This document shows positions 10,101-49,910 of a stretch of DNA of 64,000 nucleotides, piece by piece (positions within the stretch are counted from its first letter, which is position 1; each line of letters opens with the position of its first letter). Source of the DNA: an uncultured Rhodobacterales bacterium (GTDB taxonomy: Bacteria > Pseudomonadota > Alphaproteobacteria > Rhodobacterales > CAZPXZ01). Location: positions 563 to 64,562 of the forward strand of contig CAZPIN010000125.1 in assembly GCA_964586735.1 (NCBI GenBank), read 5' to 3'. The notes beneath the pieces were generated by a model. It was not told where the DNA came from, made no database searches, and saw only the letters and a list, made by a program, of their open reading frames with translations. The translations under genes were made by a program, and so were the position numbers.

Positions 10101-12733
10101 ATTCTGATAGCTACACGCTGGTTAAGGATGACGAGGGGAAGCGTATTCAGGTAGTAGTAAGATTTGTTGATGACAAGGGATATGATAACGTAATACCCAG
10201 CAACCCCAGTGCGGTGGTCCAGCGCAGGGAAAACTCCGCGCCTCAAGGTCTGCCGGTAGTCTCTGCTGTGGAAAATTGCAGTTCTTCCACTTCTGCGGCT
10301 CTGAAGGTTGGTGTGGCTGTGAAAGCAAGTACGGCGGGCATCATGGATGACAACCAAATGACAACCGCTAGGTCCTCCGCAGCGTTTAGCTATCAGTGGG
10401 TGCGCCTGAATGCTGACGGCAGCAGCCCCCTCAGCATCGGCACTGATTCGGACTGCTACACGCTTCAGAAGGCGGACGAGGCAAAGAGGCTGCAGGTGGT
10501 GGTGCGCTACATCGACGACGATGGCTATGAAGAGACAGTCAGGAGTCTGCCGACAGGCTCCTCCGTGGTGCGCAGGGATCAGGTCCCGGCTACTGGTATG
10601 CTAGCTATTGTCGGCACGGCGCAGGTTGACGCGACGCTTACGGCGGATGCGTCAAGCATCGTAGATCCCGTCAACGGGCTGGATGCGGCGACAATGCAGT
10701 ATCGGTGGGAGCGGCTCGACTCTCCGAACGATCCAAACCCGGTTACGGTAGGCGAAGGCCCTAGCTATACCCCCGTCAAGGCTGACGCGCGCAGTTTCCT
10801 GCGGCTGACTGTGATCTTCCATGATGACGATGACCATCCCGAAAAGTTGAGCGTACTGTTCACTGGCCCCGACGGCGTTACTCCTGCGAGAGTCGAGCGC
10901 CGTGCCAACGCGGAAGCCACGGGTGCACCGGTTATTCGCGGGGCGGCGCGGGTAGGCGAGACGCTGGAGGCGTTTCGCGGCTCCATTGAGGATGACAACG
11001 GAGTGCCAAATGCCGGTACCTTTACCTGGCAGTGGTTCCGCGTGGACGCGAATGGCGACCGCGAGCAGATAACCGGTGCGACAAGGGACCGCTATGCCGT
11101 TACGCCCGATGACTCCGAGAAGCGGCTTATGGTGAGGGCTACGTTCGATGACCTTGATGAGTACGAGGAGTCTTTAGATAGCTCTCTCACTGGACTGGTA
11201 ACCGAAATTGCCGCGGTGCGCTCAAGTGGCCTGACCCACCTGCTCTCCGGTATGGGGCGTACTTTTTCCATTAGCCTCGTCGACGTGGTTTGGGAGCGCG
11301 TTGGCAGCTTGGAGTCGTGGAGGAGCGGACCGACGGCCTCGGCATCGATTGGCGGACGTGTCATTGACACTGGCGCCTTTACGGAAGACGACGTCGGCAG
11401 GGCAGTGGAGGAGGTCGCCGGCTTTCTAGGACTGAAGGCTGTTTCGCCAGAATTGATCGATCTGGAAGCCGGGCGGGGGACGACGTCTGGTTCTGGGCTT
11501 GACGCCTACAGCGCCTGGGCCGGGCTGCCCACTGGACGCGACCTCTTTGGCAGATCGCGAATTTCGATGCTCCTTGGCGGGGGGAAAAGATCGGATGGGG
11601 GCGGCCTGTCTATGTGGGCGCAGGGAGACATGGGCGCTTACGAGCGGGAGCGGGCGGACAGCGAATTCTCTGAGGCCAATTCCGAAGGCACAATGTTGGC
11701 TGGGCATCTGGGTTTCGAGTACGCCTCTTCCGGCGGCGGGCTGATGGGGGTCGCGCTGAGCCACTCGCTGGGAGAGGCAGAATACGCTTTCGCTGACGAT
11801 CGGCACAGTGACGCCACGGTAGATACTGCAGTGACCAGCGCCATGCCGTATCTGTATTTCCGTTCCGAAGGCGGCGCGGGCGTCTGGGCCTCTTACGGTC
11901 AGGGCAACGGCACTTTGGAGCTGGCAGACGACGTTAGTGATGTTGAAACCGACATTGCGCTGCAAACAACGGCCGCTGGTTTCCATGGTGGAGCGCTGCC
12001 CTACGGAGACGTCGCCCTTCGACTCAAGGCCGATTACTTCCGTACCGACGTTACGGCCGACGAGGTTGACGACGGAAGCAGCCTGATCGGGGTGGATACC
12101 TTCAGCTCACGGGCTCGTTTGGTTCTTGAAGGCACTGTGCAAAGTTTTTCCGATGGTGGTGGCAGAACAACAGGCAAGTTCGAGCTCGGCGCCCGTATTG
12201 ACGACGGGGACGTTGGCGAAGGAATCGGGGCGGAAGCTGCTGCCGAGGTTCGCTTTGGCAGCACGAATACGGGCCTCGAATTGCGTGGCCGGGGCAGCGT
12301 CCTGTTCTTCCACGAGCAGGAAGGGTATCGCGAGTGGGGTGCCAGCCTTGGCTTGATATACGACCCCGGCCGCAGAGGGCGAGGGGTCAGCCTGACGCTG
12401 GAACCTGCCTGGAATGCCCCCAGCACGGGTGTGGCGAGCGCCATGTGGGACACCGACTCGTTGCCGGACTACAGCGGGCAAACAGCCTCCAGTGACGACG
12501 CTTCCTTCCGGGCGAGGCTTGGATACGGCGTTGGCGCACTGCACGAGAGCGGACTGGTAACCCTCTACAGCGAGGTTGAAGACGACGATGACCGCCGCCT
12601 GCGGCTTGGCTCCGAATTTGACGGTATCGGGACAGGTTTAGGGGGGCTGCGGCTTGACCTATACGGCGAGCGGCGCGACAGCGGCGACGACCCGGAAAAC
12701 GCGGCCATGTTCAAGGGCACAATTGGCTTCTAG
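7181..12733 (+). CDS. Giant autotransporter-type surface protein (1850 aa): signal peptide, repeat-rich passenger, C-terminal beta-barrel
   Basis: Sec signal 'RRKRGVCWSRGALWGICLLMVPATVPLYAPSAVA/QT'. There are 11 degenerate ~100-140 aa repeats. The C-terminal ~390 aa has alternating beta-strand character and ends in the OMP signature '...FKGTIGF' (terminal Phe). Confidence 0.85.
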   Translation: MQAAQLEGICGRRRDGDGLSVPREGIGGGTRQVRRKRGVCWSRGALWGICLLMVPATVPLYAPSAVAQTPAATIDFRRVTVDSQPDGERSAWVGFLLRGGLDNRPSGVTENDLKYEWRSASTVDTGQDINPQFSPIAGATGPAYRLTSTDDDHYIQLRVYVEGGDSWYRRLQRDDGTDQKIDTITNHCTRTADNDTETVNLTGFTRELNDEGTYSNVYRVGNTLSIEFTDNGGLQDMLADRPIPGRTGWTYGDSGNTHGQGIAYGWELVDENGDSFDPAKFLGGEATYEIPATTTEGDTVAGNRIKGAVLYTDDWGCPEVLAQTSEVVVGDETTNSDATGRPLILFNAGNNAGESAIGIPVESGQVLRYDRGSIDDSNGWDGTVHEYQWQSQTKPDTSDWEDIAGASGATYTIPSATDANDILRFRIKITYRDDDYAQTSMEEVVESMPTGYINIPPGGAPQIGVTNNLTMVGNDMSVAPAAEQEFIEILSDPNGAAAPFAYRWEKCAAGQDCGADGGGWTNLTNVEADPDTTDTAGQQFTGSSFTLLVTHAGYRFRYIVSYTDEDGSDEEAVSAVSEAVNASATGSVTIVFSSPRYPTETPYSRTPVVGEVLQADTKSIADLNGLGDFTYSWFREDKDGANRVPISGSTQPLYTLQDEDAGKKISLEVRFTDGEGNPEEPGASNPTDIVNDPVKGFQVNAGAPSGAPEYEVGGVFADRLQVSTASLRDLNENQLAIANRFDPITWAWARVNSDGVATTVSGQIAAVYTLTPEDAGLRIRATASYTDEDGFDETISATSDVVNARASGSPTISGPVSPEPGSVLTTEILSVVDNNGFDRSKAILTWIRVAADNIASDIAGAHGDTYTLAENDANSRIMVRVDFTDDDGFAESRFSALYPAGTVADGTFATVNGRPTGAPVLEGSAQVDMMVEVNTDGIDDANGLAGLEARGGYAYTWIRLNADRTGPVTLVGENSDSYTLVKDDEGKRIQVVVRFVDDKGYDNVIPSNPSAVVQRRENSAPQGLPVVSAVENCSSSTSAALKVGVAVKASTAGIMDDNQMTTARSSAAFSYQWVRLNADGSSPLSIGTDSDCYTLQKADEAKRLQVVVRYIDDDGYEETVRSLPTGSSVVRRDQVPATGMLAIVGTAQVDATLTADASSIVDPVNGLDAATMQYRWERLDSPNDPNPVTVGEGPSYTPVKADARSFLRLTVIFHDDDDHPEKLSVLFTGPDGVTPARVERRANAEATGAPVIRGAARVGETLEAFRGSIEDDNGVPNAGTFTWQWFRVDANGDREQITGATRDRYAVTPDDSEKRLMVRATFDDLDEYEESLDSSLTGLVTEIAAVRSSGLTHLLSGMGRTFSISLVDVVWERVGSLESWRSGPTASASIGGRVIDTGAFTEDDVGRAVEEVAGFLGLKAVSPELIDLEAGRGTTSGSGLDAYSAWAGLPTGRDLFGRSRISMLLGGGKRSDGGGLSMWAQGDMGAYERERADSEFSEANSEGTMLAGHLGFEYASSGGGLMGVALSHSLGEAEYAFADDRHSDATVDTAVTSAMPYLYFRSEGGAGVWASYGQGNGTLELADDVSDVETDIALQTTAAGFHGGALPYGDVALRLKADYFRTDVTADEVDDGSSLIGVDTFSSRARLVLEGTVQSFSDGGGRTTGKFELGARIDDGDVGEGIGAEAAAEVRFGSTNTGLELRGRGSVLFFHEQEGYREWGASLGLIYDPGRRGRGVSLTLEPAWNAPSTGVASAMWDTDSLPDYSGQTASSDDASFRARLGYGVGALHESGLVTLYSEVEDDDDRRLRLGSEFDGIGTGLGGLRLDLYGERRDSGDDPENAAMFKGTIGF
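7478..11213 (+). repeat. Passenger-domain repeat array: 11 degenerate modules ending in 'Y-T-L-x3-D-x-G-x-x-I-x-V-x-V-x-(F/Y)-T-D-(D/E)-D-G'
   Basis: Anchor motifs occur at aa 144, 288, 411, 545, 654, 768, 866, 978, 1093, 1196 and 1305. Examples are 'YTLTPEDAGLRIRATASYTDEDGF', 'YTLAENDANSRIMVRVDFTDDDGF' and 'YTLVKDDEGKRIQVVVRFVDDKGY'. Confidence 0.85.
11558..12733 (+). other. Autotransporter beta-barrel translocator domain of the giant protein
   Basis: 'LSMWAQGDMGAYE...' is followed by regularly alternating aromatic/Gly strands, with terminal 'GTIGF'. Confidence 0.7.
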
Positions 12734-18801: not shown

Positions 18802-19110
18802 TCACACAGGCGCTCCGTTCCCCCAGCTCCCGTTGCCTTTCATCGCCTCGTCGATGCTGGGCGCCCTCAACAGCCGGATCCGCCAGCTGTCCAGATCCTC
18901 CTCCGACGCCGCCCGCAGCCGTTCATCCAGATCGTCTGGAACCTCGCCGAAACGCTCTTGGGCAATACCTAAGAGTACCTCGACTTTGCCTTCCGCCCAG
19001 CCTTTCGCTAGGCCCCGAGCCTCGCCCCGAGCCTCGCGTTCCGCAAGCAGACCCGGGGACAGCTGCTCTATCGCCATGTCCATCATCTCTTTACCTCTCT
19101 CGTTTCCCAA
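18802..19110 (-). CDS. Stand-alone DUF4351-like C-terminal-domain ORF (copy of the C-terminus of the upstream Rpn-like gene)
   Basis: It aligns end to end with the last ~100 aa of 19174..20232 ('GNERGKEMMDMAIEQLSPG...RFGEVPDDLDERLRAASEEDLDSW...EAMKGNGSWGNGAPV'). It is in the same frame as the upstream gene and is offset from it by 348 nt. Confidence 0.6.
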   Translation of the reverse strand: MGNERGKEMMDMAIEQLSPGLLAEREARGEARGLAKGWAEGKVEVLLGIAQERFGEVPDDLDERLRAASEEDLDSWRIRLLRAPSIDEAMKGNGSWGNGAPV

Positions 19111-19173: not shown

Positions 19174-20232
19174 TCACACTGGCGTCCCGTTTCCCCAGCT
19201 CCCGTTGCCTTTCATCGCCTCATCGATGTTGGGCGCGTCCAGCACCCGGTCCAGCCAGTCGTCGAGCTTCTCCTCAGACGCCGCTAGAAGCTGCGCCTCC
19301 AGATCACTCGGCTCTACGCCGAAACGCTTCCGGACAACGCGCAAGATCGACTCGACTTTGACTTCCGCCCGGCCCTCCGCCCGGACTTCAGCAAGCCGAC
19401 CCGGGGACAGCTGCTCTATCGCTATGTCCATCATCTCTTTACCTCTCTTGTTTCCCAAAGCCTCAAGCGCCAGGCGGCGGCACCGCGCATTGTCCTTCAG
19501 GCCGTTGACGATGTTAACAGCAATCGCCGTGCCTTTCAACTGCAGCTCCTCCATGATGTACCGATAGGCAAAGCCATACAGATCCCGTATCAGACCGTCG
19601 GTAACGTCCTTGCGGTTCTCCAGCCCAATCGCCACCAGCAGCGCCCAGAAATCGGGGTTCGCGTACAGCCTTTCCAAGGGTATCTCTCCCAGCAGAAGCA
19701 AATGCGTCGGCCCCATGCTGAAAAAGCCGCCCTCGAAGCCCATTGCCTTCAGTATCTCCTCGACGGTCGGCGGGACTCTGTCAGCGGCGGGGCCATGTAC
19801 CACCAGCCCCGCCAGCATCAGTATGGTCTTGCCTTCAAACGGGCCCTTCGGCCTGGACAGGTCTTCCGCCGCCAAGGCCGCATTGGCGCTAAGCTGCATC
19901 CGCGCCATCCGCTCGTAGTTGTGCTTGTGCTCCAAGACAGCGGCGAGGACAGCCTCGTCTGAAAGGTCGCCGACGAGGAGACCGTCCAGCTCCCGTCGCC
20001 GGCCGCCTTTGGTGATGACCGTACCGGACAGGAGCCGGACATTGTACAGTCGGCTGACCCGCGCTTTCGCCACCTCGACGATCATCCACATCAGCCCGCA
20101 AATGGACCCGGAGTCGCCGGTTGCGATGCGGAACGACGTGTCGTAGGGATGATGCTCGAAGTCCACCCTGAATGGAGGAGGGGACTCCTCCGGGCCTTGC
20201 GGCGATTCAGCGGGTTGTATTCTGATGGTCAT
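19174..20232 (-). CDS. Rpn/YhgA-like PD-(D/E)XK nuclease family protein with DUF4351-like C-terminal domain (paralog A)
   Basis: N-terminal 'HHPYDTSFRI' resembles the Rpn 'HDxxFK' motif. 'RELDGLLVGD...AAVLEHKHNYERMARMQL' resembles the Rpn 'D...hhhEhQS' nuclease core, with K in place of Q. The C-terminal 'RAEGRAEVKVESILRVVRKRFGVEPSDLEAQLLAASEEKLDDWLDRVL' has the DUF4351 pattern. Confidence 0.7.
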   Translation of the reverse strand: MTIRIQPAESPQGPEESPPPFRVDFEHHPYDTSFRIATGDSGSICGLMWMIVEVAKARVSRLYNVRLLSGTVITKGGRRRELDGLLVGDLSDEAVLAAVLEHKHNYERMARMQLSANAALAAEDLSRPKGPFEGKTILMLAGLVVHGPAADRVPPTVEEILKAMGFEGGFFSMGPTHLLLLGEIPLERLYANPDFWALLVAIGLENRKDVTDGLIRDLYGFAYRYIMEELQLKGTAIAVNIVNGLKDNARCRRLALEALGNKRGKEMMDIAIEQLSPGRLAEVRAEGRAEVKVESILRVVRKRFGVEPSDLEAQLLAASEEKLDDWLDRVLDAPNIDEAMKGNGSWGNGTPV

Positions 20233-20235
20233 TGG

Positions 20236-20604
20236 GAGTCTCCTCGTCCGGCTGCGAATCGGCGGAGTGCCGACTCTGGCAGCGAGGCAAATCTTCGTAC
20301 AGCTTCTGAGTCGATGTCAAATCGCGGCTAGAAAATTTTCACTAACACCTTGCCGGCAAAGGGCAAACTGCCGCAGCGCGTTGTTTTTAAGACCGTCTAA
20401 AAAGAGCGCCGAAACGGCACCTTCCCCGATTCGCGGGTGGAGGGTGCGAGGTGATTCGCTGCTGCCCGCGAGGCGATTCGCCGCCGCCCGGAGTGATTCG
20501 CCAAGGGTGATTCGCTGCTGGCCTGTGTCCATGGCGCGAGGTGATTCGCCGCTGCCCGAGGGGTGATTCGCTCGCCACCCGCAATCCTTCGCAGAGCGAT
20601 TCGC
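20236..20604 (+). repeat. Intergenic GANTC-dense region. Its core holds 8 same-strand copies of GATTCGC within degenerate ~22-bp units (gag-gtGATTCGCyGCTGCCCG)
   Basis: GATTCGC starts at 20428, 20453, 20475, 20495, 20509, 20543, 20565 and 20598. Additional GANTC sites lie at 20236 (GAGTC), 20256 (GAATC), 20272 (GACTC) and 20308 (GAGTC). Confidence 0.85.
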
Positions 20605-32593: not shown

Positions 32594-33405
32594 CGCTGCC
32601 CGCCGCGGTCCATCCCACGGCGACCGTCGAGGCGGGAGCGCAGCTGGGCGACGGCTGCGTAGTCGGCCCGTACTGCCACGTCGGCGGCGAGGCTGTACTC
32701 GGCGACTCCGTCGAGCTGGTTGCGCACGTCTGGATTGGCGGCAGGACCACGCTTGGCGACGGCGTGCGGGTGTTCCCTTTCTCCGCGCTGGGCGGAGAGC
32801 CCCAGCTTCTGCGCGACAGGGGCGATGGCTGCTCGCTGGAGGTGGGCGAAGGCACCGTGATTCGCGAGCACGTGACGCTGCACAAGGGAAGCCCGGTCGG
32901 CGCTGGGGTTACCCGTATCGGTCCCGGCTGCACGTTTATGGCCGGCACGCACGCCGCCCATGACTGCCAGCTCGGCAGCGGCGTACTGCTCAACCAGGGG
33001 GCCATTCTTGGCGGCCATGTCGAGGTGGGCGAGTCGGCGGTGTTCGGGGCGCAGTCAGGGGTGCATCCGTACTGCCGCATCGGGCGGCACTCCATGGCGG
33101 AGGCCAAGACGGGCGTGTTCCATGACGTCATTCCCTACGGCTACAGCCGGGGCACCAAAGCCTATCTCAAGGGAATCAACGCCAAGGGCCTCAAACACCG
33201 GGGATTTTCGACGGAGATCATCCGCGGCCTGAAGGACCTGCTTGGGCGAATTTTTGGCGAGGAAGGCACCCTGGCCGAGCGCTTGGCGGCGCTGGCGGCG
33301 GAGGACGGGCTTGGCGCCGAGGCGCGGGAGGTGGTGGACTTTGCCATGGCCCAGGACGCCAGGCGCAGTCTCATGCAGCCCCGCGCTTCCAGCGGCGACG
33401 GGTGA
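32542..33405 (+). CDS. lpxA: Acyl-ACP--UDP-N-acetylglucosamine O-acyltransferase LpxA (start uncertain)
   Basis: 'VHPTATVEAGAQLGDGCVVGPYCHVGG' hexapeptide repeats and 'GINAKGLKHRGFS'. The only canonical in-frame start near the N-terminus is GTG at 32542. CTG at 32590 would instead give a CTGA overlap with the fabZ stop. Confidence 0.85.
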   Translation: MPFHGNVQHRRRIPGGLTLPAAVHPTATVEAGAQLGDGCVVGPYCHVGGEAVLGDSVELVAHVWIGGRTTLGDGVRVFPFSALGGEPQLLRDRGDGCSLEVGEGTVIREHVTLHKGSPVGAGVTRIGPGCTFMAGTHAAHDCQLGSGVLLNQGAILGGHVEVGESAVFGAQSGVHPYCRIGRHSMAEAKTGVFHDVIPYGYSRGTKAYLKGINAKGLKHRGFSTEIIRGLKDLLGRIFGEEGTLAERLAALAAEDGLGAEAREVVDFAMAQDARRSLMQPRASSGDG

Positions 33406-34241
33406 TGGAGCCGGACAGGGCCAGTCTGGGCATTGTCGCTGGAAGCGGAGCGCTTCCGCGGATTCTCGCCGACTGCTGCCGCGCCGAGGGCAGGTCCTAC
33501 CAGGTCTACGGCGTGGAGGGTTTCGCTGGCGACTGGACCGAAGGGCATCCGGGCCAGCGGCTAAGCGTCTGGTCGCTGGCGGAGCTCGTGGAAAGCCTTC
33601 GCCAAACCGGATGCGCCGATGTGTGCCTCGCTGGCGGAGTGCGCCGTCCGTCCTTTGCCGGTCGTCCGGCGGAGGCGTCCGGCCTCGACCGGCTGGAGGG
33701 GGTATTTCGGGAGGGCGACGATTCGCTTCTGCGGGCAGTGTCCAGCGTACTCGCCGAAGCGGGGCTCAGGCTCGTGGGGGCGCATGAGGTCATGCCCGAT
33801 CTGCTGGCGCCGGACGGCCGCATTGCTGGTCCTGACCCTGCGCCCGGCCTGCAGGCCGACTCCGAGAGGGCGCGCGAGATCGTCCTGGCGATGGGGCGGC
33901 TTGACGTAGGGCAGGCCGCAGCCGTCGCCGAGGGCCGGTGCCTGGGCGTCGAGGCGGTGGACGGCACGGATGCGCTCCTTGCGCGAATCGCGGCGATGGA
34001 CGAGGCGGCGCGGGGCGGCGCGGCTCGAGGCGCGGGCGTGGTGGTCAAGGCGCCCAAGCCTCAGCAGAACCGTCGGCTGGATCTGCCGGCGATCGGACCC
34101 GAAACCGTGGAGGGCGCGGCCCGGGCGGGGCTGAAGGGCGTGGCGGTCGAGGCGGAAGGCGTGCTGCTGGTGGAGCGGGAGGCCATCGAGCGCGCCGCAG
34201 AGTCTTTGGAAATCAGCGTGTGGGCTTTCCCGCCAGAGTAG
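33402..34241 (+). CDS. lpxI: UDP-2,3-diacylglucosamine pyrophosphatase LpxI (DUF1009 family)
   Basis: 'LGIVAGSGALPRIL' and 'GVVVKAPKPQQNRRLDLPAIGPETV'. It lies between lpxA and lpxB. Confidence 0.8.
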   Translation: MMEPDRASLGIVAGSGALPRILADCCRAEGRSYQVYGVEGFAGDWTEGHPGQRLSVWSLAELVESLRQTGCADVCLAGGVRRPSFAGRPAEASGLDRLEGVFREGDDSLLRAVSSVLAEAGLRLVGAHEVMPDLLAPDGRIAGPDPAPGLQADSERAREIVLAMGRLDVGQAAAVAEGRCLGVEAVDGTDALLARIAAMDEAARGGAARGAGVVVKAPKPQQNRRLDLPAIGPETVEGAARAGLKGVAVEAEGVLLVEREAIERAAESLEISVWAFPPE

Positions 34242-34254
34242 GCGGACCGTATTC

Positions 34255-35454
34255 ATGAGCAGGATTTTTCTGCTTGCCGCCGAGCCTTCGGGCGACCAGC
34301 TGGGAGCGCGGCTTGCGGCAGCGCTGCGGGAGATGGCCGGCAACCGGCTGGAGCTTGCGGGCATGGGCGGGCCCGCCATGGCGGAGCATGGCATCGAGGG
34401 GCCGTACGACACATCCAAACTCGCCGTCATGGGGCTTGCCGAGGTGGTGCCGAAGATTCCCCAGCTGCTGCGGCGCATCCGGCAGACCTGCCGCTGGATC
34501 GTCAAGGCGCAGCCTGCGGCGGTGGTGACCATCGACAGCCCGGATTTCATGCACCGCGTGGTGGCGAAGGCCCGCCCGCTTTGCCCCAACACCGCCTTCG
34601 TCAACTACGTGGCTCCCACCGTATGGATGTGGCGGGCGAAACGGGTGCATCGGATTGCCCAGCTCTACGACCTGCAGCTTGCCCTGCTGCCGTTTGAGCC
34701 GCCTTACTTCGAAACGTCGGGAGTGCGCTGCGCGTTCGTGGGGCATCCGGCCGTAGAAACGGCCGCCGATGGGCTGCCTTCGAAACGGGAGGCGCGGCGG
34801 TTGCTGGGACTGGATGACGAGGCTCCGGTTGCTGTGGCGCTGCCTGGCAGCCGCAGGTCTGAGATCCACCGCCACGGAAAGGTGTTTGGCGAAGCGCTGG
34901 CCCTGCTTGCGCGGCAGGTTCCGGGACTGGAGGTGATCCTGCCCATGGCCCCCGGCGTCGAATCGAAGGTAAGGGGCATGACGGAGTCTTGGCAGCCGAA
35001 ACCGCTGCTGGTGGAGGCGGGGTCCGGCGGTCCGGCGTCCCGCTGGACGGCCTACGCCGCCGCCGACGTGGCCTTGGCGGCATCGGGCACCGTAACGGTG
35101 GAGCTTGCCGCGGCGGGCTTGCCGATGGCTGTCGCCTACCGCCTTTCGCCGCTGACCTGGACGGTGCTGCGTAGGCTGGCCAAGCGGCGCCATGCCAGCC
35201 TGGTCAACCTGATGCTTGACGAGGATGCGGTGCCGGAGTTTCTCCAAGGCCGGTGCCAAGCCAAGCCCATCGCCAAATCGCTGGCAAGGCTGCTGGAGGA
35301 CAGGGCGGCGGCAGCGCTGCAGCAGTCTTCGCTGGAACGGGCTGCCGCCATGCTGTGGGGGGTCGGCGAAAGCAGCCCGCCGTCCATGCGGGCGGCGCGG
35401 GCGGTCTGGGAACTCGCAAGCAGCCGGGCGGAGACAGGGACCGCGGCCAGCTGA
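34255..35454 (+). CDS. lpxB: Lipid-A-disaccharide synthase
   Basis: 'IFLLAAEPSGDQLGARL' and 'VTIDSPDF'. Confidence 0.95.
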   Translation: MSRIFLLAAEPSGDQLGARLAAALREMAGNRLELAGMGGPAMAEHGIEGPYDTSKLAVMGLAEVVPKIPQLLRRIRQTCRWIVKAQPAAVVTIDSPDFMHRVVAKARPLCPNTAFVNYVAPTVWMWRAKRVHRIAQLYDLQLALLPFEPPYFETSGVRCAFVGHPAVETAADGLPSKREARRLLGLDDEAPVAVALPGSRRSEIHRHGKVFGEALALLARQVPGLEVILPMAPGVESKVRGMTESWQPKPLLVEAGSGGPASRWTAYAAADVALAASGTVTVELAAAGLPMAVAYRLSPLTWTVLRRLAKRRHASLVNLMLDEDAVPEFLQGRCQAKPIAKSLARLLEDRAAAALQQSSLERAAAMLWGVGESSPPSMRAARAVWELASSRAETGTAAS

Positions 35455-35505
35455 AGCCGATTCGCAGCCGCCAGACGGCCGCCAGCAGAGCGGCGCATGC
35501 ATGGC
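35361..35505 (+). repeat. Left copy of an imperfect ~140-bp direct repeat (lpxB 3' end plus ~50 bp downstream)
   Basis: The 25-nt identical core 'tccatgcgggcggcgcgggcggtct' at 35383-35407 recurs at 37316-37340. The flanking sequence aligns with mismatches and indels. Confidence 0.8.
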
Positions 35506-35845
35506 GACAGCCGCCTGAATCTGGCGACGCCATTCTGTAGCCCCTTGGCTTGCAGGCATCTTCCGGCCGCTCAAAGAGCGGCATTTGGCATGGACAGTCC
35601 CCGCATCCGAAGCGGTCCGCGCGTCGGGGAGATTGCTCGCTATGGTGAGGTCAAGCTGGAATTGGCCCTCGGTTTCGAGATGCGTCCGAGGGAATTGCAT
35701 CTGACCTTCGTCACGGCGCATCGAGTACAGTCAGGTGCCTCCAGCTCCGCCGCGGCGTGCGCCGAGTGGACTGGGAGTTCCACCCGAAACCAGCCAGAAA
35801 CCGCCGCTGGCCGAGTCCAGAGGCGGGAGAAAGGAGAAAGCCAAA

Positions 35846-36904
35846 ATGGCCTACCCGATGGGAGAGCAGCCGCGCCAGAATCAGGGCGGCGAAGAGACCA
35901 CTGAGACCGAGCGGCTGGAGGCATGGATGCAGGGCTGGCCGAGCCAGTTCTACGACGGCTACAGCTTCAGGATACTCAGCAACATGGAAACAGCGTTGGC
36001 GGTCATCGTTTACGCCGTGCGAAAAGCCGGAAAGCACAGGCTTGCAAAGAAGCTGGAGGGAGGCTCGCTGGTAATGGCTCCCACTCGCCTGGTCGGTGAA
36101 ACCCTGCGCCAGAGATACCGCGACCTTTCGTACAGGTGGAAGCCCAAAAGAAAAGGTTCTAACGAGATTCGGATTGACATTGAGGCCACCAGTGGCTCCG
36201 ACCAGCTGGTCACGGTCCGCTCGACGGACTACTCGGTTCAGGGAGCGTTGCAGGAGGCAGCTTCGCAGAAGAGGGTCAGCCGCCGCGCCCCCGGATTCAC
36301 GATGGTCATCAATTTCGGCCCCAGGGGTCTTCGGGTGTCCTGCGTGTTCGAGGAGATGTTTTCGGACTACGACGAGCTTGAGGGGCTCGGGCCTCGCAAC
36401 ATAACTGTCCAGCTGGACCTTATGGCGATGACGCTTGAGGAAATCCTTGCGGCATTCGACTGCCGTACCGCGTGTGTCCTTGGGATACTCCGCATCGCCA
36501 ACAGGCCGCGGGAGTTTCGCAAGGCGGACATTTTCAGGGTGATCAAACTGGCGGCGGGGGACTGGGAGCGCGAGCAGATGGTCGCTCTCTGCATTGCATG
36601 CCGGTTCAAGGGAGTGTACTATAGGTGGGCGCTGCAGGCGCTGGACGAAGCAGGAATAGGGAGAGACAACGTGGAAGGCATGATGGAAATCCGGGAACGG
36701 GAGGCCAAGGCCGAGGGCGTGGCCGATGTGCTGCTGCGGCAAGTACGGGAGAAGTTCAAGGACATATCTGACCGGAGGGAGGCGCAGGTGCGGTCAGCTA
36801 CGCTTGAGCAGCTGGAGGAGTGGGCGGTGCGCCTTCTGCATGCCCGCGACATCGATGCGCTGTTCGCCGGAAGCGGCCGGGCTAGGAGCCAGCCTCAGGG
36901 ATAG
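35846..36904 (+). CDS. Divergent Rpn-like family protein with DUF4351-like C-terminal domain (paralog B)
   Basis: The ATG at 35846 follows RBS 'aaaggagaaag'. The C-terminal 'REREAKAEGVADVLLRQVREKFKDISDRREAQVRSATLEQLEEWAVRLLHARDIDALF' has the DUF4351 pattern. 'FYDGYSFRIL' resembles the Rpn N-terminal motif, but the nuclease core motif is not clear. Confidence 0.55.
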   Translation: MAYPMGEQPRQNQGGEETTETERLEAWMQGWPSQFYDGYSFRILSNMETALAVIVYAVRKAGKHRLAKKLEGGSLVMAPTRLVGETLRQRYRDLSYRWKPKRKGSNEIRIDIEATSGSDQLVTVRSTDYSVQGALQEAASQKRVSRRAPGFTMVINFGPRGLRVSCVFEEMFSDYDELEGLGPRNITVQLDLMAMTLEEILAAFDCRTACVLGILRIANRPREFRKADIFRVIKLAAGDWEREQMVALCIACRFKGVYYRWALQALDEAGIGRDNVEGMMEIREREAKAEGVADVLLRQVREKFKDISDRREAQVRSATLEQLEEWAVRLLHARDIDALFAGSGRARSQPQG

Positions 36905-37000
36905 CCGTCGGCGGCTTGGCTGCGGTAGCGGCGACTTACTCTCTCCTGCTGCTCTGGGCAGCGGCCGACGCTGGACGAGGCAGGAATTGGGAGAGACAAC

Positions 37001-37234
37001 GTGGAAGGCATGATGGAAATCCGAGAACGGGAGGCCAAGGCCGAGGGCAAGGCCGAGTTGCTGCTCCAACTTGTACGGCAGAAGTTCAAGGACATATCCG
37101 ACCGGAGGGAGGCACAGGTGAAGTCGGCCTCGCTTGAGCAGCTGGAGAATTGGGCGGCGCGTCTGCTGAGCCCTCGCGATCTCGATTCGCTGTTTGGCGG
37201 GAGTGGCCGGGCAAAGCGCCAGCCGCAGGGGTAG
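37001..37234 (+). CDS. Stand-alone DUF4351-like C-terminal-domain ORF (copy of the paralog B C-terminus)
   Basis: 'EGMMEIREREAKAEGKAELLLQLVRQKFKDISDRREAQVKSASLEQLENWAARLL' closely matches the last 77 aa of 35846..36904. It is offset by 330 nt and is in the same frame. Confidence 0.55.
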   Translation: MEGMMEIREREAKAEGKAELLLQLVRQKFKDISDRREAQVKSASLEQLENWAARLLSPRDLDSLFGGSGRAKRQPQG

Positions 37235-37299
37235 CCGTCGGCGGCTCGGCTGCGGCTGCAGCGACTGCAGAGTAAGGATGCATTCGGTTGACCGCAGCG

Positions 37300-37436
37300 G
37301 GTCGGTCAGCAGCAGTCCATGCGGGCGGCGCGGGCGGTCTTGGAACTGGCGAACGCCCCATACGGAGGAGGGCAGAGCAGCCGGCTGAAAGCGGCACGCA
37401 TTTGACAGACCGCCAGCAGCCTTGCGGTGCATAGAC
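37300..37436 (+). repeat. Right copy of the lpxB-3'-end direct repeat
   Basis: See 35361..35505. This copy is non-coding and more decayed. Confidence 0.8.
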
Positions 37437-37517
37437 TATGCTGGAGGCTAGGCAGAGGGCGGCAGCCGGAGCAGTAGCGGCAAGTCTTCGTCTCCGCGGC
37501 AGTACAGGAGCCCTATC

Positions 37518-38624
37518 ATGGCAAAGAAAATCAAGATCAGGAAATACAGGCCACCGAGGCTTTCCGCGTCGCACTACACCAGGTATGCGTTTGAGCAGCT
37601 GATCACTGGGTATTCGGACGAGCCTGCAGAGCGCTCGTCCCTCGTCCGTACCGCTACCCGTCTTCTTATCGAGGAAGCCTTGGAGGAGGAGGCCAAGGAT
37701 GTCATGGGCCGCGGCTATTACCAGCATGGAGGCGCGAATGGAGGGGGATACCGCAACGGCACCCGCATATGCCGCCTCAAGTCCGCCAGCAGCGTCATCG
37801 AATACGGTGCGCCGCAGATTACCGGCAGAGAGGGGGGATTCAGCTCCGGAATCCGGAGGCATCTCAAGAAGCGCGGTGAAGTGGCCGAGAGTCTGGCGAT
37901 GCACATTCTGGCCCGCGGCTGCACCGCCCGCGAAGTCAACTGCTCCTTCACCGGCGAGGACGGAAAGCCGCTTCTTTCGCGAGCCGCGGTGAAGCGGCTA
38001 GCCGAGCGGCTGCAGGAGGACTACAGCAACTTTTCCACCCGCGAACTGTACCGGTACAAGGTTGCCTATCTTGTCTTCTGCCCTGTCATCGAACGGCGAC
38101 ATCCGGGCAAAAAGAAGGAACGAGTCATGGCAGCTTGGGGGAGTATCGAAACGGAAAGATGGCGATACGTCGAAAAGGGAAAGAAAGTTCTGCTTGGGCT
38201 CATGGCCAGCGCAAAGGAGGACGAGGAGACCGTAACCGGCTTCTTCCAGGACATGCGTTCCCGCGGTCTCGCTGACCCTGTGATGGTGCTTGCCGACGGC
38301 GCGCCAGGAATTACCAAGGCGATCGAGGCATGCTTTCCAGACGCGGTGCGGCAGCGCAGACTGGTTAATAGGTATCGCGCTCTGGAATCCAAAGTGCCGA
38401 AGAGCGTTTGGCCAGAGTTCGAAACGCGGGTGAAGGCCGCCTATCAGGCTCCCGGCAGGTTCCTGTCCCGCGACCTGGCCAAAGAGGTGGAGAGGGACTT
38501 CGAGGGGAAGCATCCAGAAGCGGTAGCCTGCTTTCTGGACGATTTCGACGCGTGCAATGCGTATCTTCGCATGCCGGTCGACCATCGCCAAGAGATTGAA
38601 AACGTCAACCTGTTCGCGTGGTAG
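37518..38624 (+). mobile_element. IS256/Mutator-family transposase-like gene, degenerate (probably inactive)
   Basis: 'VMVLADGAPGITKAIEACFPDAVRQRRLVNRYRALESKVPKS' parallels IS256 'SDgh.Gl..ai...fp.a.wQRC.vH..RN'. Conserved residues are replaced: the first Asp region is 'YLVFCPV', and C->R, H->N. The ORF stops at 'IENVNLFAW', where 'irTTN.iE' continues in intact members. I found no inverted repeats. Confidence 0.65.
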
Positions 38625-38858
38625 CCGCATCTCGAGCGGCGGGCAGGCAGATGGCGGGAGCGCCTATGCGATTCTCGTCGATGCCATCAAGACGCGCCGC
38701 AGCCGCCAGCCCTGCAGCGGCCGCGCCGGTGAGAGAGGGGCTCAGCGCTGAAAATTTCCAATGTCGGCGGAGCCAGATAGGCAGCGCCTCCGGCGCCGCC
38801 GTGTGTCGCAGCGGCAGGGAAGCGGGCAGCGCTCCGATGCGCGGCTGGTAACCCGCCG

Positions 38859-40157
38859 CTACCGCTTTTTCTGCGGCACGTAGTCGCGCGGCCCTTCGCC
38901 GATGTAGAGCTGCCGCGGTCGCCCGATCTTGCTTTCATCGTCCTCGCGCATCTCTTTCCACTGGGCGATCCAGCCCACCGTTCGGCTAAGCGCGAAAATC
39001 GCGGTGAACATGGACGTTGGGAAGCCCAGCGCCTCGAGGATGATGCCGGAGTAGAAGTCGACGTTCGGGTAGAGCTTGCGGTTCACAAAGTACTCGTCAT
39101 CAAGGGCGATGCGCTCCAGTTCGCGGGCGATTTTGAGCAGGGGATTGTGCTCGTAGCCCAGTTTTTCCAGCACCTCTTCAGCGGACTTCTGCAGTATCTT
39201 CGCCCTTGGGTCGTAGTTCTTGTAGACCCGGTGGCCAAAGCCCGACAGGCGGAAATCGTCGCTATTGTCCTTGGCCCTGGCGACGTACTCCGCGACCCTG
39301 TCGGGGCTGCCGATTTCCTTGAGCATGTTGAGGCAGGCTTCGTTGGCGCCGCCATGGGCAGGCCCCCACAGCGAGGCGACGCCGGCGGCGACGCAGGCGA
39401 AGGGATTGGCGTCGGACGATCCCGCCAGCCGTACCGTGGAGGTGGAGGCGTTCTGCTCGTGATCGGCATGCAGCAGAAAGATCAGGTCCATGACCTTCGC
39501 CAGAATCGGGTCGGGCTCGTATTCCTCGCATGGCACGGCGAAGCACATGTGCAGGAAGTTGGAGGCGTAGTCGAGCGAATTGCGGGGGTAGATGAAGGGC
39601 TGCCCCAGAGCGTATTTGAAGGCCCAGGCGGCGATGGTGGGCATTTTCGAGATCATGCGAATCGAGGCGATCTCGCGCTGCTCGGGATCGTTGATGTCAA
39701 GAGAGTCGTGATAGAACGCCGACATGGCTCCTACCACGCCGCAGGTGATAGCCATGGGGTGGGCGTCGCGGCGGAAGCCGCGGTAGAAATACTGCATCTG
39801 CTCGTGCAGCATCGTGTGCATGGTTACGCGGTGGACGAATTCCTCCTCCTCCTCCGCCGTGGGCAGGTGGCCGTAAAGCAGCAGAAAGCACACTTCGAGG
39901 AAGTTGGAGTGCTCGGCGAGCTGCTCGATGGGAAAGCCCCGGTACAGCAGCTGGCCGTTGTCGCCGTCCACATAGGTGATGGCCGAGCGGCAGCTGGCCG
40001 TAGAGATGTAGCCTGGGTCGAAGGTGAAGCACCCGGTTTCTTTGTACAGCGGGCGGATGTCGATCACGTCGGAGCCGCAGCTGGCGTGCAGCACGGGGAG
40101 CTCGATGTCGCGGCCCTCGTAGGTGATGCGCGCCGTCTTGGTTTCGCCGTTTTCCAT
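38859..40157 (-). CDS. gltA: Citrate synthase (type II)
   Basis: '[14 protein letters not shown]' and '[12 protein letters not shown]'. Confidence 0.97.
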
Positions 40158-47306: not shown

Positions 47307-47687
47307 CTAGCTCGCTACCCGCTTCCGGCGTGGGGACCGGGCGGTAACTTCATTGAGGGCAGGGTCGCTGTCGGTGTCGTCGTCGAACACCGCGTTGATA
47401 CTGCTGGCCGTGAGTATCCGGCACAGCCAGGTGTCAATTTGCTGCTTCGAAGCGGTGCGCACCTGCGCCTGCCTGTCTTCGGGCACGCTCCCATACTTGC
47501 TCGTTGCCAGCATCAGGAAGTTCTCGAACTTGGCCTTGGCCCAGCCCTTATCCCATCCCTCGGACCAGTACTCGCCCCAGTCCTCGGCCACGCCCCTAGC
47601 CATGGTTTGCTTCCAGTCTTCGGCCCGAAGCGCCTCTAACGACGTGTCCATAATCTCCTCATTTGCCTTCGGTGCCGCAACACCCAC
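47307..47687 (-). CDS. DUF4351-like C-terminal-domain ORF (single module)
   Basis: 'EEIMD...WSEGWDKGWAKAKFENFLMLATSKYGSVPEDRQAQVRTASKQQIDTWLCRILTASSINAVF'. It has a GTG start. The N-terminal 'MGVAAP' is shared with 48160..48726. Confidence 0.5.
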   Translation of the reverse strand: MGVAAPKANEEIMDTSLEALRAEDWKQTMARGVAEDWGEYWSEGWDKGWAKAKFENFLMLATSKYGSVPEDRQAQVRTASKQQIDTWLCRILTASSINAVFDDDTDSDPALNEVTARSPRRKRVAS

Positions 47688-47825: not shown

Positions 47826-48059
47826 CGCCTGCCCGCCGCGGCGGCGCCAGGCGATTTCGGAGCGGCGCCGGTCACCAAGTAGCATCGGTGCGCTTTGCCT
47901 TCGGTGACCGATTCGAGAAAGAGCGTCATGTCCTCAATGGGGGAGCGCCTCAGGAACAGCGAAACCGGCGTGTCGATGTCCGGTCCTGCATTCAGGCGAA
48001 GCAGCTGGGTGCGACCCTCCTGCCAGCCGCGAAGTCTCGGCACCAGAGGCAACGCGCGT
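47826..48059 (-). pseudogene. Duplicated 5' fragment of trpE (about 75 codons) with its start codon destroyed
   Basis: 'RGWQEGRTQLLRLNAGPDIDTPVSLFLRR...FLESVTEGKAHRCYLVTGAAP' aligns with TrpE 'RGWREGRSQLLRLDVSSDLDTPVSLYLRL...LLESVTGGETRGRYSVVGVAP'. The ATG has become ACG (plus-strand 'cgt' at 48057-48059 versus 'cat' at 47204-47206), and there is a small indel. Confidence 0.75.
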
Positions 48060-48159
48060 CGCCAAGGAAACGTGGTCAGGCAGTCGTTCGTCTGTCTGGC
48101 TTTAGCTGGAACGGACCGCCGACGGCAAGCGCCAAACGGGTGCCCAAGACATGGCCAGT

Positions 48160-48726
48160 CTACTTGGCCGTACGCTTCAGCGGTGGTGACTTGACGGGAA
48201 CATCATTGACGGCGTGGCCGTTGCCTGCGTCTTCGTCAAACACCGCATTGAGACTTGTAGCAGTGAGTATCCGGGGTAGCCAGTATTCAATCTGCGGTAC
48301 CGAAGAGGCGCGCACCAGTTCCTCTATGTGACCTGGCACTCGCCGATACTTGCTCCTTGCCAGTATCAGGAAGTCCTCGGCCTTGGCTTCGGACCTGGCC
48401 TTGGCCTCGTTCTGGGTCATGCCCCTGTCATCGTCGAACACCAGGCTGAGACTGGGAGCCCTGAGAACCCGGAGCAGCCAGTTGTCAAGCTGCGGTATCC
48501 AAGCGGAGCGTACCTGCGCCTCTCTGTCCTCCGGCACTCGACCAAACTTGCTCCTCGCCAGCATCAGGAAGTCCTCGGTTTTGGCCGTGGCCTCGGCCTG
48601 TTCCATGCCATCGTCTGCGACTACCTCATAGGCTACGGCCATAATCTCTTCGACCAACGGCTTCGATGCCACTTTGTCCGACGTCTCCATGGTCTCCTCC
48701 ATCACTTCCGGTCCTGCGACGCCCAT
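48160..48726 (-). CDS. ORF made of two tandem DUF4351-like modules
   Basis: Module 1 is 'TEDFLMLARSKFGRVPEDREAQVRSAWIPQLDNWLLRVLRAPSLSLVF'. Module 2 is 'AEDFLILARSKYRRVPGHIEELVRASSVPQIEYWLPRILTATSLNAVF'. Confidence 0.5.
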   Translation of the reverse strand: MGVAGPEVMEETMETSDKVASKPLVEEIMAVAYEVVADDGMEQAEATAKTEDFLMLARSKFGRVPEDREAQVRSAWIPQLDNWLLRVLRAPSLSLVFDDDRGMTQNEAKARSEAKAEDFLILARSKYRRVPGHIEELVRASSVPQIEYWLPRILTATSLNAVFDEDAGNGHAVNDVPVKSPPLKRTAK

Positions 48727-48803: not shown

Positions 48804-49910
48804 CTAGTCGGTGCGCTTGCCGCTGCCGTTGAACACCGCCTCGATGTCGGGCGCGGCATACAGGCGATCAAGCCAGTCATCGACCTGCTCCTGCGAAGCG
48901 TTGCGCACCTGGTCTGCCAAATGGTCAGGGACGCTCTGAAACCGCCTTTCGGCAGCCCGCAGAAATGTCACACTTCGGCCTTCGGCCAGACCTTCGGCCC
49001 AAAACATCTCGAATGACGGGTCCATAATCTCCTCCACCATGTCCTGTCCCAGAACGTTCGCAATCGCCTTCTCGATTCGAACGCGCGAAACGCCTTGCTC
49101 GGCGAGTGCACCTACAGCATACTGCCTCTGGTTCTTCGTGTAAAGCCCGAGCCCCTCTGCAATATATTCAAGGTCCTTGTCACTCAGCGGCGGTCCGTCA
49201 CGGGTTCCCCTTGCAACCAGCAGCGGCGCACCCGCCGCCGCGTTCTTGGTGAGTTCCTGCCGGCGAAGGTTCCCCAGGTAGAAGTGGACGACCTTCTCCG
49301 CCGTCAGCGTTTCCGCCTTTTCCTCGGGTGTCAGTTTCGCCAGCTCGGCCAGAGATTTCGGGCGGGTCTGCGTCGCCTTCCCGTTCAGTACAATAACGCC
49401 ATTGAGGATTGGCACTTCGCCCCATGTCGTTACTCCATCTTCCACCAGCTGGCGGGTAAGACGGAACGCGGAGCTGACCACCTGAAGCTCGGCCAGCTTC
49501 GTCTTGTCCGACTTGTGCTCATAGGCGCTGACCACGGGCCTCCCGTCGGTGTGCTTTGCCAGCAGGCCCAAATCGGCCTCGTCGATGAGGAAGTCTCCGC
49601 CCTCAACGCGAGTGGGAAGCGGGCGGGGATGAAAATTCCTGTCGAGATTCCGGTAGACCACACCCGCCAGCGTGAGGCGAAGCAGCTCCCAAAGGGTATC
49701 GGGGAAATTGGCGAGCCAGCGGATGTTGGCATCCCACGGGTGGGCCCTTCTCCTTGGTGGCTTCTCTGTTCCAGCCTGTTCCTGCTCCGGCTGGTTCGAC
49801 TCGTGTGTCTGTTCTGGCATGGCCATGCCTCCTCTGTCTGGGGTGACGCTTGGCATCGCCGCCCGGCGAATCACTCCGCCGCCGCGGCCATGCTCGTTTG
49901 TGCAGTCCAC
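48804..49910 (-). CDS. Rpn/YhgA-like PD-(D/E)XK nuclease family protein with DUF4351-like C-terminal domain (paralog C)
   Basis: 'HPWDANIRWLANFPDTLWELL' is an Rpn-like N-terminal motif. 'DEADLGLLAKHTDGRPVVSAYEHKSDKTKLAELQV' fits the D...EhK core. The C-terminus reads 'WAEGLAEGRSVTFLRAAERRFQSVPDHLADQVRNASQEQVDDWLDRLYAAPDIEAVF'. Confidence 0.7.
   Translation of the reverse strand: MDCTNEHGRGGGVIRRAAMPSVTPDRGGMAMPEQTHESNQPEQEQAGTEKPPRRRAHPWDANIRWLANFPDTLWELLRLTLAGVVYRNLDRNFHPRPLPTRVEGGDFLIDEADLGLLAKHTDGRPVVSAYEHKSDKTKLAELQVVSSAFRLTRQLVEDGVTTWGEVPILNGVIVLNGKATQTRPKSLAELAKLTPEEKAETLTAEKVVHFYLGNLRRQELTKNAAAGAPLLVARGTRDGPPLSDKDLEYIAEGLGLYTKNQRQYAVGALAEQGVSRVRIEKAIANVLGQDMVEEIMDPSFEMFWAEGLAEGRSVTFLRAAERRFQSVPDHLADQVRNASQEQVDDWLDRLYAAPDIEAVFNGSGKRTD

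Follow-up and report, generated by a model that had tools for sequence, protein, structure and literature searches.

In Escherichia coli K-12, the prophage e14 resides in icd, supplies the last codons of this gene and leaves a 163-bp pseudo-icd' at its far end (PMC6379469). Effector-immunity modules of type VI secretion systems (T6SS) are subject to sequential displacement through homology-facilitated illegitimate recombination (PMC5361080, PMC3240628). The rpn loci of E. coli encode an RpnL toxin within whose gene the RpnS antitoxin is also encoded, and RpnS genes that stand apart are found as well, such as ypaA downstream of rpnE and a further one downstream of rpnC; in the published view these genes move through unspecified recombination or hitch-hiking and not by transposition of their own, without target duplications or defined ends (PMC10400941). 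The locus considered here (locus B) lies in a 64-kb window (i.e. the whole analysed stretch of 64,000 nucleotides from an uncultured Rhodobacterales bacterium) and consists of a divergent rpn gene (rpnB) and a duplicated RpnS-like module, placed between two copies of the 3' end of lpxB. It is tentatively proposed, with a probability of roughly 0.4, that a homology-dependent insertion by single crossover (Campbell-type) into the lpxB 3' end left the two copies as its left and right joints. The topology by itself (i.e. an insertion that brought a foreign surrogate lpxB tail, whatever the enzyme) seems on balance probable. The features of the locus, in the order in which they follow one another, are:

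34255-35454, plus strand: lpxB, lipid-A-disaccharide synthase, 399 aa (PF02684, 291 bits; 84% identical to protein P0002 of the related contig L081)
35379-35498, plus strand: left copy of the repeat, an attL-like joint made up of the lpxB 3' end and ~45 nt downstream (repeat search, pairwise BLAST)
35382-35407, plus strand: 26-nt exact core of the left copy and proposed crossover segment, encoding S-M-R-A-A-R-A-V and holding the 9-mer GCGGGCGGY twice
35408-35498, plus strand: lpxB tail in use, probably imported with the insert (a surrogate 3' end) according to identity comparisons; Trp at a position that is Leu in every homologue checked
35499-35845, plus strand: spacer X, ahead of rpnB (without a match in L081 by BLAST, or in Rfam, promoter and terminator scans)
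35846-36904, plus strand: rpnB, a divergent Rpn/YhgA-like protein with a C-terminal DUF4351, 352 aa (PF14261, 27.2 bits; PF04754, 19.7 bits)
36631-37260, plus strand: tandem duplication with a 330-nt period, 36631-36930 and 36961-37260, 84% (repeat search; 80% at the amino acid level by tblastn)
37001-37234, plus strand: free-standing open reading frame (ORF) of 77 aa, DUF4351 (RpnS-like), with a GTG start after GGGAGAG (PF14261, 34 bits, cutoff 25)
37261-37311, plus strand: unique DNA that joins the duplicated module to the right repeat copy
37312-37432, plus strand: right copy of the repeat, an attR-like joint, probably the displaced original lpxB 3' end with its downstream DNA; core at 37315-37340 (match to L081)
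37518-38624, plus strand: degenerate IS256-family transposase gene, outside the repeats (PF00872, 122 bits; NF033543, 143.2 bits)
38714-40157, minus strand: gltA-proximal intergenic DNA (38714-38858) and gltA (38859-40157; PF00285), where collinearity with L081 resumes (82%)

An earlier note on this DNA, made from the letters alone, had reported imperfect direct repeats of ~140 bp with a 25-nt identical core at the lpxB 3' end. The repeat is indeed present at that place: 35379-35498 matches 37312-37432 at 71% over 121 columns with one 1-nt indel (pairwise BLAST, E = 3e-16), and a repeat search of the region likewise finds the lpxB 3' end again ~1.93 kb downstream, with a 39-nt core pair at 92% (35379-35417 and 37312-37350). 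The longest exact block, GTCCATGCGGGCGGCGCGGGCGGTCT, measures 26 nt instead of 25 and stands at 35382-35407 and 37315-37340, the only two places in the window at which it occurs on either strand. In 300 shuffles the longest common substring averaged 8.6 and reached 12 at most, versus the 26 observed between the copies. The 70-nt tail of the repeat remains collinear when the core is taken away (local score 22 vs a shuffle mean of 11.4, with 2 of 1000 shuffles reaching the score). The similarity does not, in other words, fall apart in a proper alignment, which had been named as an outcome that would speak against the repeat. To the left of the core, ~18 nt (35361-35378 and 37298-37311) are weakly similar at a level equalled by 48 of 1000 shuffles, which is not significant alone, and their best local match lies elsewhere; the supported length of the repeat is therefore ~121 nt and only possibly the ~140 of the earlier note. 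In the lpxB frame, this leftmost part of the right copy reads R-V-G-Q-Q-Q, compared to G-V-G-E-S-S-P-P in lpxB, and the last ~14 nt of the junction DNA before 37312 may be a diverged lpxB pre-core. The gene itself reads through the left copy to its own stop at 35454, by which the repeat takes in the last 76-94 nt of lpxB and ~45-50 nt downstream.

The core (35382-35407) is itself a tandem 9-mer (GCGGGCGGC GCGGGCGGT), G+C-rich and of low complexity, a structure that may favour slippage or pairing.

ORF and domain scans agree with the earlier description of what lies between the copies, namely just rpnB and the 77-aa DUF4351 ORF, and the 330-nt tandem duplication does extend past the stop codon, spanning the rpnB 3' end and 26 nt beyond it. 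The gene to the right of the repeat is, as had been supposed, a degenerate IS256-like one: it is C-terminally short and stays below the threshold of its family model (NF033543, 143.2 bits vs a cutoff of 150, profile positions 3-301 of 338), and a repeat search showed no terminal inverted repeats for it, nor any inverted repeat pairing the two boundaries of the insert. The target-site duplication of an insertion sequence (IS) or transposon looks different from what is found, as the repeat is 121 nt long, 71% identical and strongly non-uniform, and the transposase gene lies outside it. Rfam, promoter and terminator scans of 35000-39000 returned nothing relevant and no terminator-like site in the repeat. 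The G+C content of the insert is ~0.60-0.64, versus 0.68-0.71 for the lpx genes, which is nevertheless uninformative because gltA is also at ~0.62.

The comparison that had been suggested earlier, of the lpxB-gltA region with relatives lacking the insert, could be made. The closest LpxB in the GTDB species-representative genomes is 53% identical, and closer relatives were obtained as three Logan contigs from a protein search, with LpxB identities of 84, 69 and 62%; in total, 85 related lpxB loci were fetched, all at no more than 53% LpxB identity except these three (L081 to L083). The read sets SRR26493825 and SRR26493824 contain relatives at 81-89% identity. The contig with the 84% identical LpxB, L081 (2958 nt), has the order lpxI, lpxB, 545 nt, gltA, and holds neither an rpn gene nor an IS. 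Its BLAST matches to the window are:

L081 2-2256, window 33229-35488: 85%
L081 2152-2288, window 37312-37448: 70%
L081 2604-2958, window 38714-39066: 82%

The segment 2152-2256 of L081 is therefore represented twice in the window, once on each side of the rpn cassette, while L081 itself has a single copy of the sequence and no internal repeat, and is read as the unoccupied (empty) site. L081 is collinear with the window on either side of the insert (lpxI-lpxB and gltA-gltX); the region of the IS256 remnant (37449-38713) stands in place of 316 nt of L081. A repeat that persists in relatives without any insert, which the earlier note had named as a reason to abandon the idea, was not found: L081 has the single copy, a duplicated lpxB end was seen in none of the 83 other lpxB loci, and an rpn-like gene near lpxB in none of the 85. 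Since 53 of these 85 loci have gltA at a distance of no more than 8 kb from lpxB, lpxB-gltA is the common arrangement. An exact-protein look-up of the LpxB and GltA of the window, and of P0001, gave no record, and a metagenome scan with a degenerate 30-nt core pattern that fits both copies as well as L081 had 0 matches.

Among the loci tested, the sole match to a repeat downstream of lpxB was in L049, and it was set aside as a terminator hairpin unrelated to the duplicated lpxB end. In this locus, a 31-nt terminator-like hairpin stands after lpxB (9229-9259) and again after gltA (10651-10681), flanking a gene on the opposite strand.

In a three-way alignment of the left copy, the right copy and L081, the identities change abruptly along the repeat:

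Upstream of the core: left vs right copy 48%; left copy vs L081 82%; right copy vs L081 48%
Core: left vs right copy 37/42 (36/39 ungapped, 26 exact); left copy vs L081 33/42; right copy vs L081 32/42
Tail: left vs right copy 62%; left copy vs L081 62%; right copy vs L081 72%

To the left of the core, it appears that the left copy alone is lpxB. The identity between the two copies is heterogeneous (core 36/39 vs tail 50/80, Fisher p = 4e-4), and in the core L081 differs from each copy at about 9-10 of 42 positions (~21-24%). As a neutral yardstick between the window and L081, the third codon positions of lpxB (72%) and the gltA-side intergenic DNA (76%) were pooled to 73%. The tail of the right copy fits this benchmark against L081 (p = 0.44), whereas the tail of the left copy falls below it, both against L081 (p = 0.017) and against the right copy (p = 0.025). 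The z-scores of the local alignments are 15.6 for the right copy with L081, 7.6 for the two copies with each other, and 5.3 for the left copy with L081. The right copy stays homologous to L081 as far as 37448, ending ~30 nt after the left copy has ceased to resemble either of the two. Singleton sites in the tail number 15 in the left copy, 7 in the right copy and 9 in L081, the pattern to be expected if the left copy is the outgroup, although this is not significant alone (p = 0.13). A Leu follows R-A-A-x-A-V/T in all 7 of the 7 closest LpxB homologues; the right copy and L081 keep this codon (TTG), whereas the left copy, which is the one in use, has TGG (Trp). The tails of the 69% and 62% LpxB relatives show no similarity to either copy or to L081, and no donor of the left tail is found there.

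These results show the repeat, the empty site, the mosaic pattern and the absence of a recombinase gene; from them we infer a circular donor, the point of crossover and the kind of enzyme. The donor would have been a DNA circle, or a DNA that became circular, of a related lineage standing between L081 and the 69% LpxB relative in distance. On it would have been spacer X, rpnB and the duplicated RpnS-like module, along with a homeologous stretch of lpxB 3' end, and it would have recombined with the resident lpxB inside the 26-nt core, the sole long identical block. The gene would now finish in the imported tail (35408-35454 coding, followed by 35455-35498), which would hold its last ~15 codons, while the resident tail and the DNA downstream of it would have been displaced 1.9 kb to the right (37341-37448). 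LpxB would remain intact in this process, with a C-terminus that is slightly different and longer. The near-identity of the core between the copies would simply reflect that recombination took place there. About 26 identical nt is also approximately the minimum length for RecA-dependent exchange in E. coli; this, together with the absence of a recombinase gene, is why a homology-dependent crossover is favoured.

Several points weigh against the proposed insertion. The empty site is known from a single relative (L081) that is 15% diverged at the DNA level, and neither the donor sequence nor a close relative of RpnB was found in the databases searched. The comparison of the tails is based on just ~80 nt, in which the excess of 15 left-unique over 7 right-unique sites is not significant alone (p = 0.13). 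Furthermore, plain tandem duplication accounts for the duplicated gene end at a second rpn locus of the window (locus C), i.e. local duplication is active at these loci. The last point leads to the most obvious alternative, in which ~120-140 nt of the resident lpxB end were copied to both sides in situ, either when the cassette inserted or in a later tandem or template-switch duplication. Decay of the copies would have followed, with the core either retained or made uniform again through short-patch gene conversion. Locus C of the same window shows an event of this kind, as its segment 46967-47549 recurs at 47826-48402 (72%). The unit comprises 241 nt of trpE 5' coding sequence together with the ~120 nt that precede it and a DUF4351 module, its identity is uniform, and the spare trpE fragment (47826-48066) looks like a copy made locally that has since decayed (41 unique changes against 1). 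In addition, tandem direct duplication is reported as the origin of rpn arrays (PMC10400941), cleavage products of RpnA can prime template switching (PMC5350276), and the 330-nt duplication shows that locus B itself has undergone a tandem event. Nevertheless, an origin in situ is rather doubtful. Uniform decay cannot yield a core at 26/26 and 36/39 beside a tail at 50/80 (p = 4e-4), and the core is not intrinsically slow-evolving, with L081 differing from both copies by ~21-24% there. With the tails of the two copies at 62%, i.e. below the orthologous 73%, the duplication would have to predate the split from L081, which would then need a precise loss of the insert as well as gene conversion confined to the core. 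Moreover, it is the in-use, partly coding copy that is the more diverged, opposite to what is expected of a functional copy, and the DNA after the second copy is ancestral and not a second unit. Locus B departs from locus C on every diagnostic point: its identity is non-uniform, its in-use copy is the odd one out, no repeat of the unit follows the second copy, and its tails have diverged beyond the orthologous level.

The same topology as that of the proposed homology-dependent insertion, but a different enzyme, is implied by true site-specific integration, which the earlier note had put forward. In this case an integrative element would have left the repeats as its attL and attR; its recombinase, of the tyrosine or serine type, would act in trans, or the recombinase gene and most of the cargo would have been deleted later. 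Diverged arms around an identical core, combined with a surrogate end of the gene, are classically known from e14 in icd (PMC6379469), and the possible diverged pre-core of the right copy (R-V-G-Q-Q-Q-S-M-R) would suit an attP with its own mimic of the gene end. However, the window ORFs scanned showed no integrase or recombinase domain, nor is there such a gene between the repeats; the insert is just ~1.8 kb, the site is not reused in the other lpxB loci (rpn-like gene in 0 of 85, duplicated lpxB end in 0 of 83), and extra events are needed to lose all but one toxin-antitoxin-like cassette and yet keep both joints. Site-specific integration is therefore unlikely, and the earlier note holds where it described an insertion scar at the lpxB 3' end (given the empty site, the lack of duplicates elsewhere and the mosaic joint), while its specific claim of site-specific integration is not supported. 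Much less probable still is an assembly chimera, in which two related strains or species were joined at the shared 26-mer and the duplication is absent from any one genome. A core as short as this could mislead an assembly graph of small k, but some real molecule must contain the right joint (duplicated module, unique junction, core), since a switch between strains at the core would have lpxB before it and not an rpnS module, and the flanks lpxI-lpxB and gltA-gltX are collinear with L081. That the similarity arises by chance, or from a regulatory or terminator element conserved behind lpxB, is scarcely credible: although a high G+C content and a 9-nt repeat within the core would favour it, the exact run reaches 26 nt and exceeds the shuffle maximum of 12, the pairwise E is 3e-16, the repeat has no Rfam match and no terminator-like site, and the match in L049 is an unrelated hairpin. 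Together with the single copy in L081 and the 0 of 83 other loci with a second copy, the exact run rules this explanation out.

With respect to the cargo, RpnB scores just above the cutoff for PF14261 (DUF4351; 27.2 bits, cutoff 25) and below that for PF04754 (Transposase_31; 19.7 bits, cutoff 21), and the three Rpn paralogs of the window are ~24% identical to one another. A profile built from these three finds 2773 proteins in a full HMMER search, including free-standing and multi-module DUF4351 proteins, and because members of this set score 109-152 bits on PF04754, the family assignment of RpnB appears sound by transitivity. A word-indexed search of 5.8 billion proteins returned no homologue of RpnB at E<1e-5 but itself, and the full HMMER profile search no close relative, though it did find the family. 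Of the catalytic residues of the PD-(D/E)XK fold (D...E-x-K), RpnB has D93 and E113 according to the alignment, but E-A-T where RpnA, RpnC and outside relatives have E-H-K, so that the K is missing; it also has Y-D where the family has H-D, whereas RpnA and RpnC keep the motifs. It may be an inactive nuclease that is kept with its antitoxin-like modules. The earlier remark that the cargo belongs to a family named for promoting recombination is, as a link between this activity and the scar, pure speculation, and RpnB itself has E-A-T and not the E-H-K motif. The 77-aa ORF is 80% identical to the RpnB C-terminus at the amino acid level and would correspond to the separately encoded RpnS genes of E. 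coli, which is already known biology; a PDB sequence search gave no RpnS match for this module. With regard to the context of the nearest relatives, P0124 lies on a 2.7-kb contig without a bracketing repeat, and for P0125 and P0128 there was no record.

The window is otherwise an ordinary alphaproteobacterial core chromosome, with lpxI-lpxB converging on gltA-gltX, and with trpE/trpD, a ppiD-like gene and PFOR-type genes. Three rpn loci in 64 kb of such DNA is a high density. The three Rpn paralogs are at 19174-20232 (minus strand), 35846-36904 (plus strand) and 48804-49910 (minus strand), each followed by 1-3 free-standing DUF4351/RpnS-like modules, the ORFs of which are at 18802-19110, 37001-37234, 47307-47687 and 48160-48726, the last of these holding two modules in one frame. 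In L084, of which TrpE is 89% identical, the order is ppiD, 22 nt, trpE, and the whole ~3-kb RpnC locus is absent; relative to this contig, the RpnC locus also appears to be an insertion. At locus A, no bracketing repeat was found; beside it (20443-20571) is an array of four 18-nt units, GGTGATTCGCYGCYGCCC, at spacings of 22, 34 and 34. Elsewhere in the window, the ORF at 1268-2245 encodes a fusion of nucleotidyltransferase (Polbeta/NTP_transf_2) and HEPN domains of a toxin-antitoxin or defence type, and that at 7181-12733 encodes 1850 aa with a GC3 of 0.64.

Since rpn genes are widespread toxin-antitoxin-like defence genes, it is of interest that locus B offers a concrete and datable joint, consisting of an empty site, a 26-nt crossover block, an imported end that would be in use by an essential gene, and the displaced original end. 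It would also show that the C-terminus of LpxB tolerates replacement. As a long shot, rpn-rpnS cassettes may be mobile units without a recombinase, which carry a fragment of a neighbouring gene as homology arm for single-crossover integration, possibly stimulated by breaks made by the Rpn nuclease. If so, the end of the host gene would be replaced and the old end left as a scar, and the lpxB 3' and trpE 5' duplicates at two of the three rpn loci of the window would be footprints of one process. If the pattern recurs, it would provide a simple route by which small defence cassettes enter the neighbourhoods of core genes without a recombinase of their own. As a single case, however, locus B is a lead and not a result, i.e. 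a modest though real clue to how such genes move.

Compared to e14 in icd, the insertion would likewise lie inside the 3' end of a housekeeping protein gene (here lpxB), the insert would give the gene a substitute end with which it stays functional at the cost of small amino acid changes, and the displaced original end would remain as a direct repeat on the far side (163 bp in e14, ~120 nt here). Direct repeats of which one completes lpxB, a single-copy empty site and mosaic arms around an identical core are all found at locus B, whereas an integrase gene within the element and reuse of the site in other genomes are not. In fact, e14 is a prophage of ~15 kb with its own integrase and site-specific excision, while the insert here is ~1.8 kb, without a recombinase, and holds only an rpn gene and a spare RpnS-like module; the tails are also far more diverged here (62%). 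With the T6SS modules, locus B shares the entry of a foreign module of toxin/immunity type beside a conserved gene via a short conserved anchor, leaving displaced gene ends and orphan immunity genes. The T6SS process replaces DNA, however, and a duplication of the anchor is unexpected in it, whereas here the anchor stands on both sides, which is better suited to a circular substrate or a replicative join.

The architecture of the cargo resembles that of the E. coli rpn loci, with an N-terminal YhgA-like nuclease and a C-terminal DUF4351, a second free-standing DUF4351 gene just downstream, and a tandem direct duplication. It differs in that RpnB is extremely divergent and lacks the K of E-H-K, and in that the published rpn genes are reported without target-site duplications or defined ends, whereas a 121-nt homeologous repeat brackets the cassette here. 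Locus C (at the trpE 5' end) is similar insofar as part of the neighbouring housekeeping gene persists beside DUF4351 modules in a diverged, directly repeated copy, but there the entire unit recurs head to tail, uniformly at ~72%, and it is the spare copy that has decayed, while at locus B only the gene end is repeated, non-uniformly, and the in-use copy is the odd one. The duplication of a gene end at an insertion is as such classical; what is unusual about locus B is the lone rpn-rpnS cargo, the lack of a recombinase and the clean homeologous mosaic.

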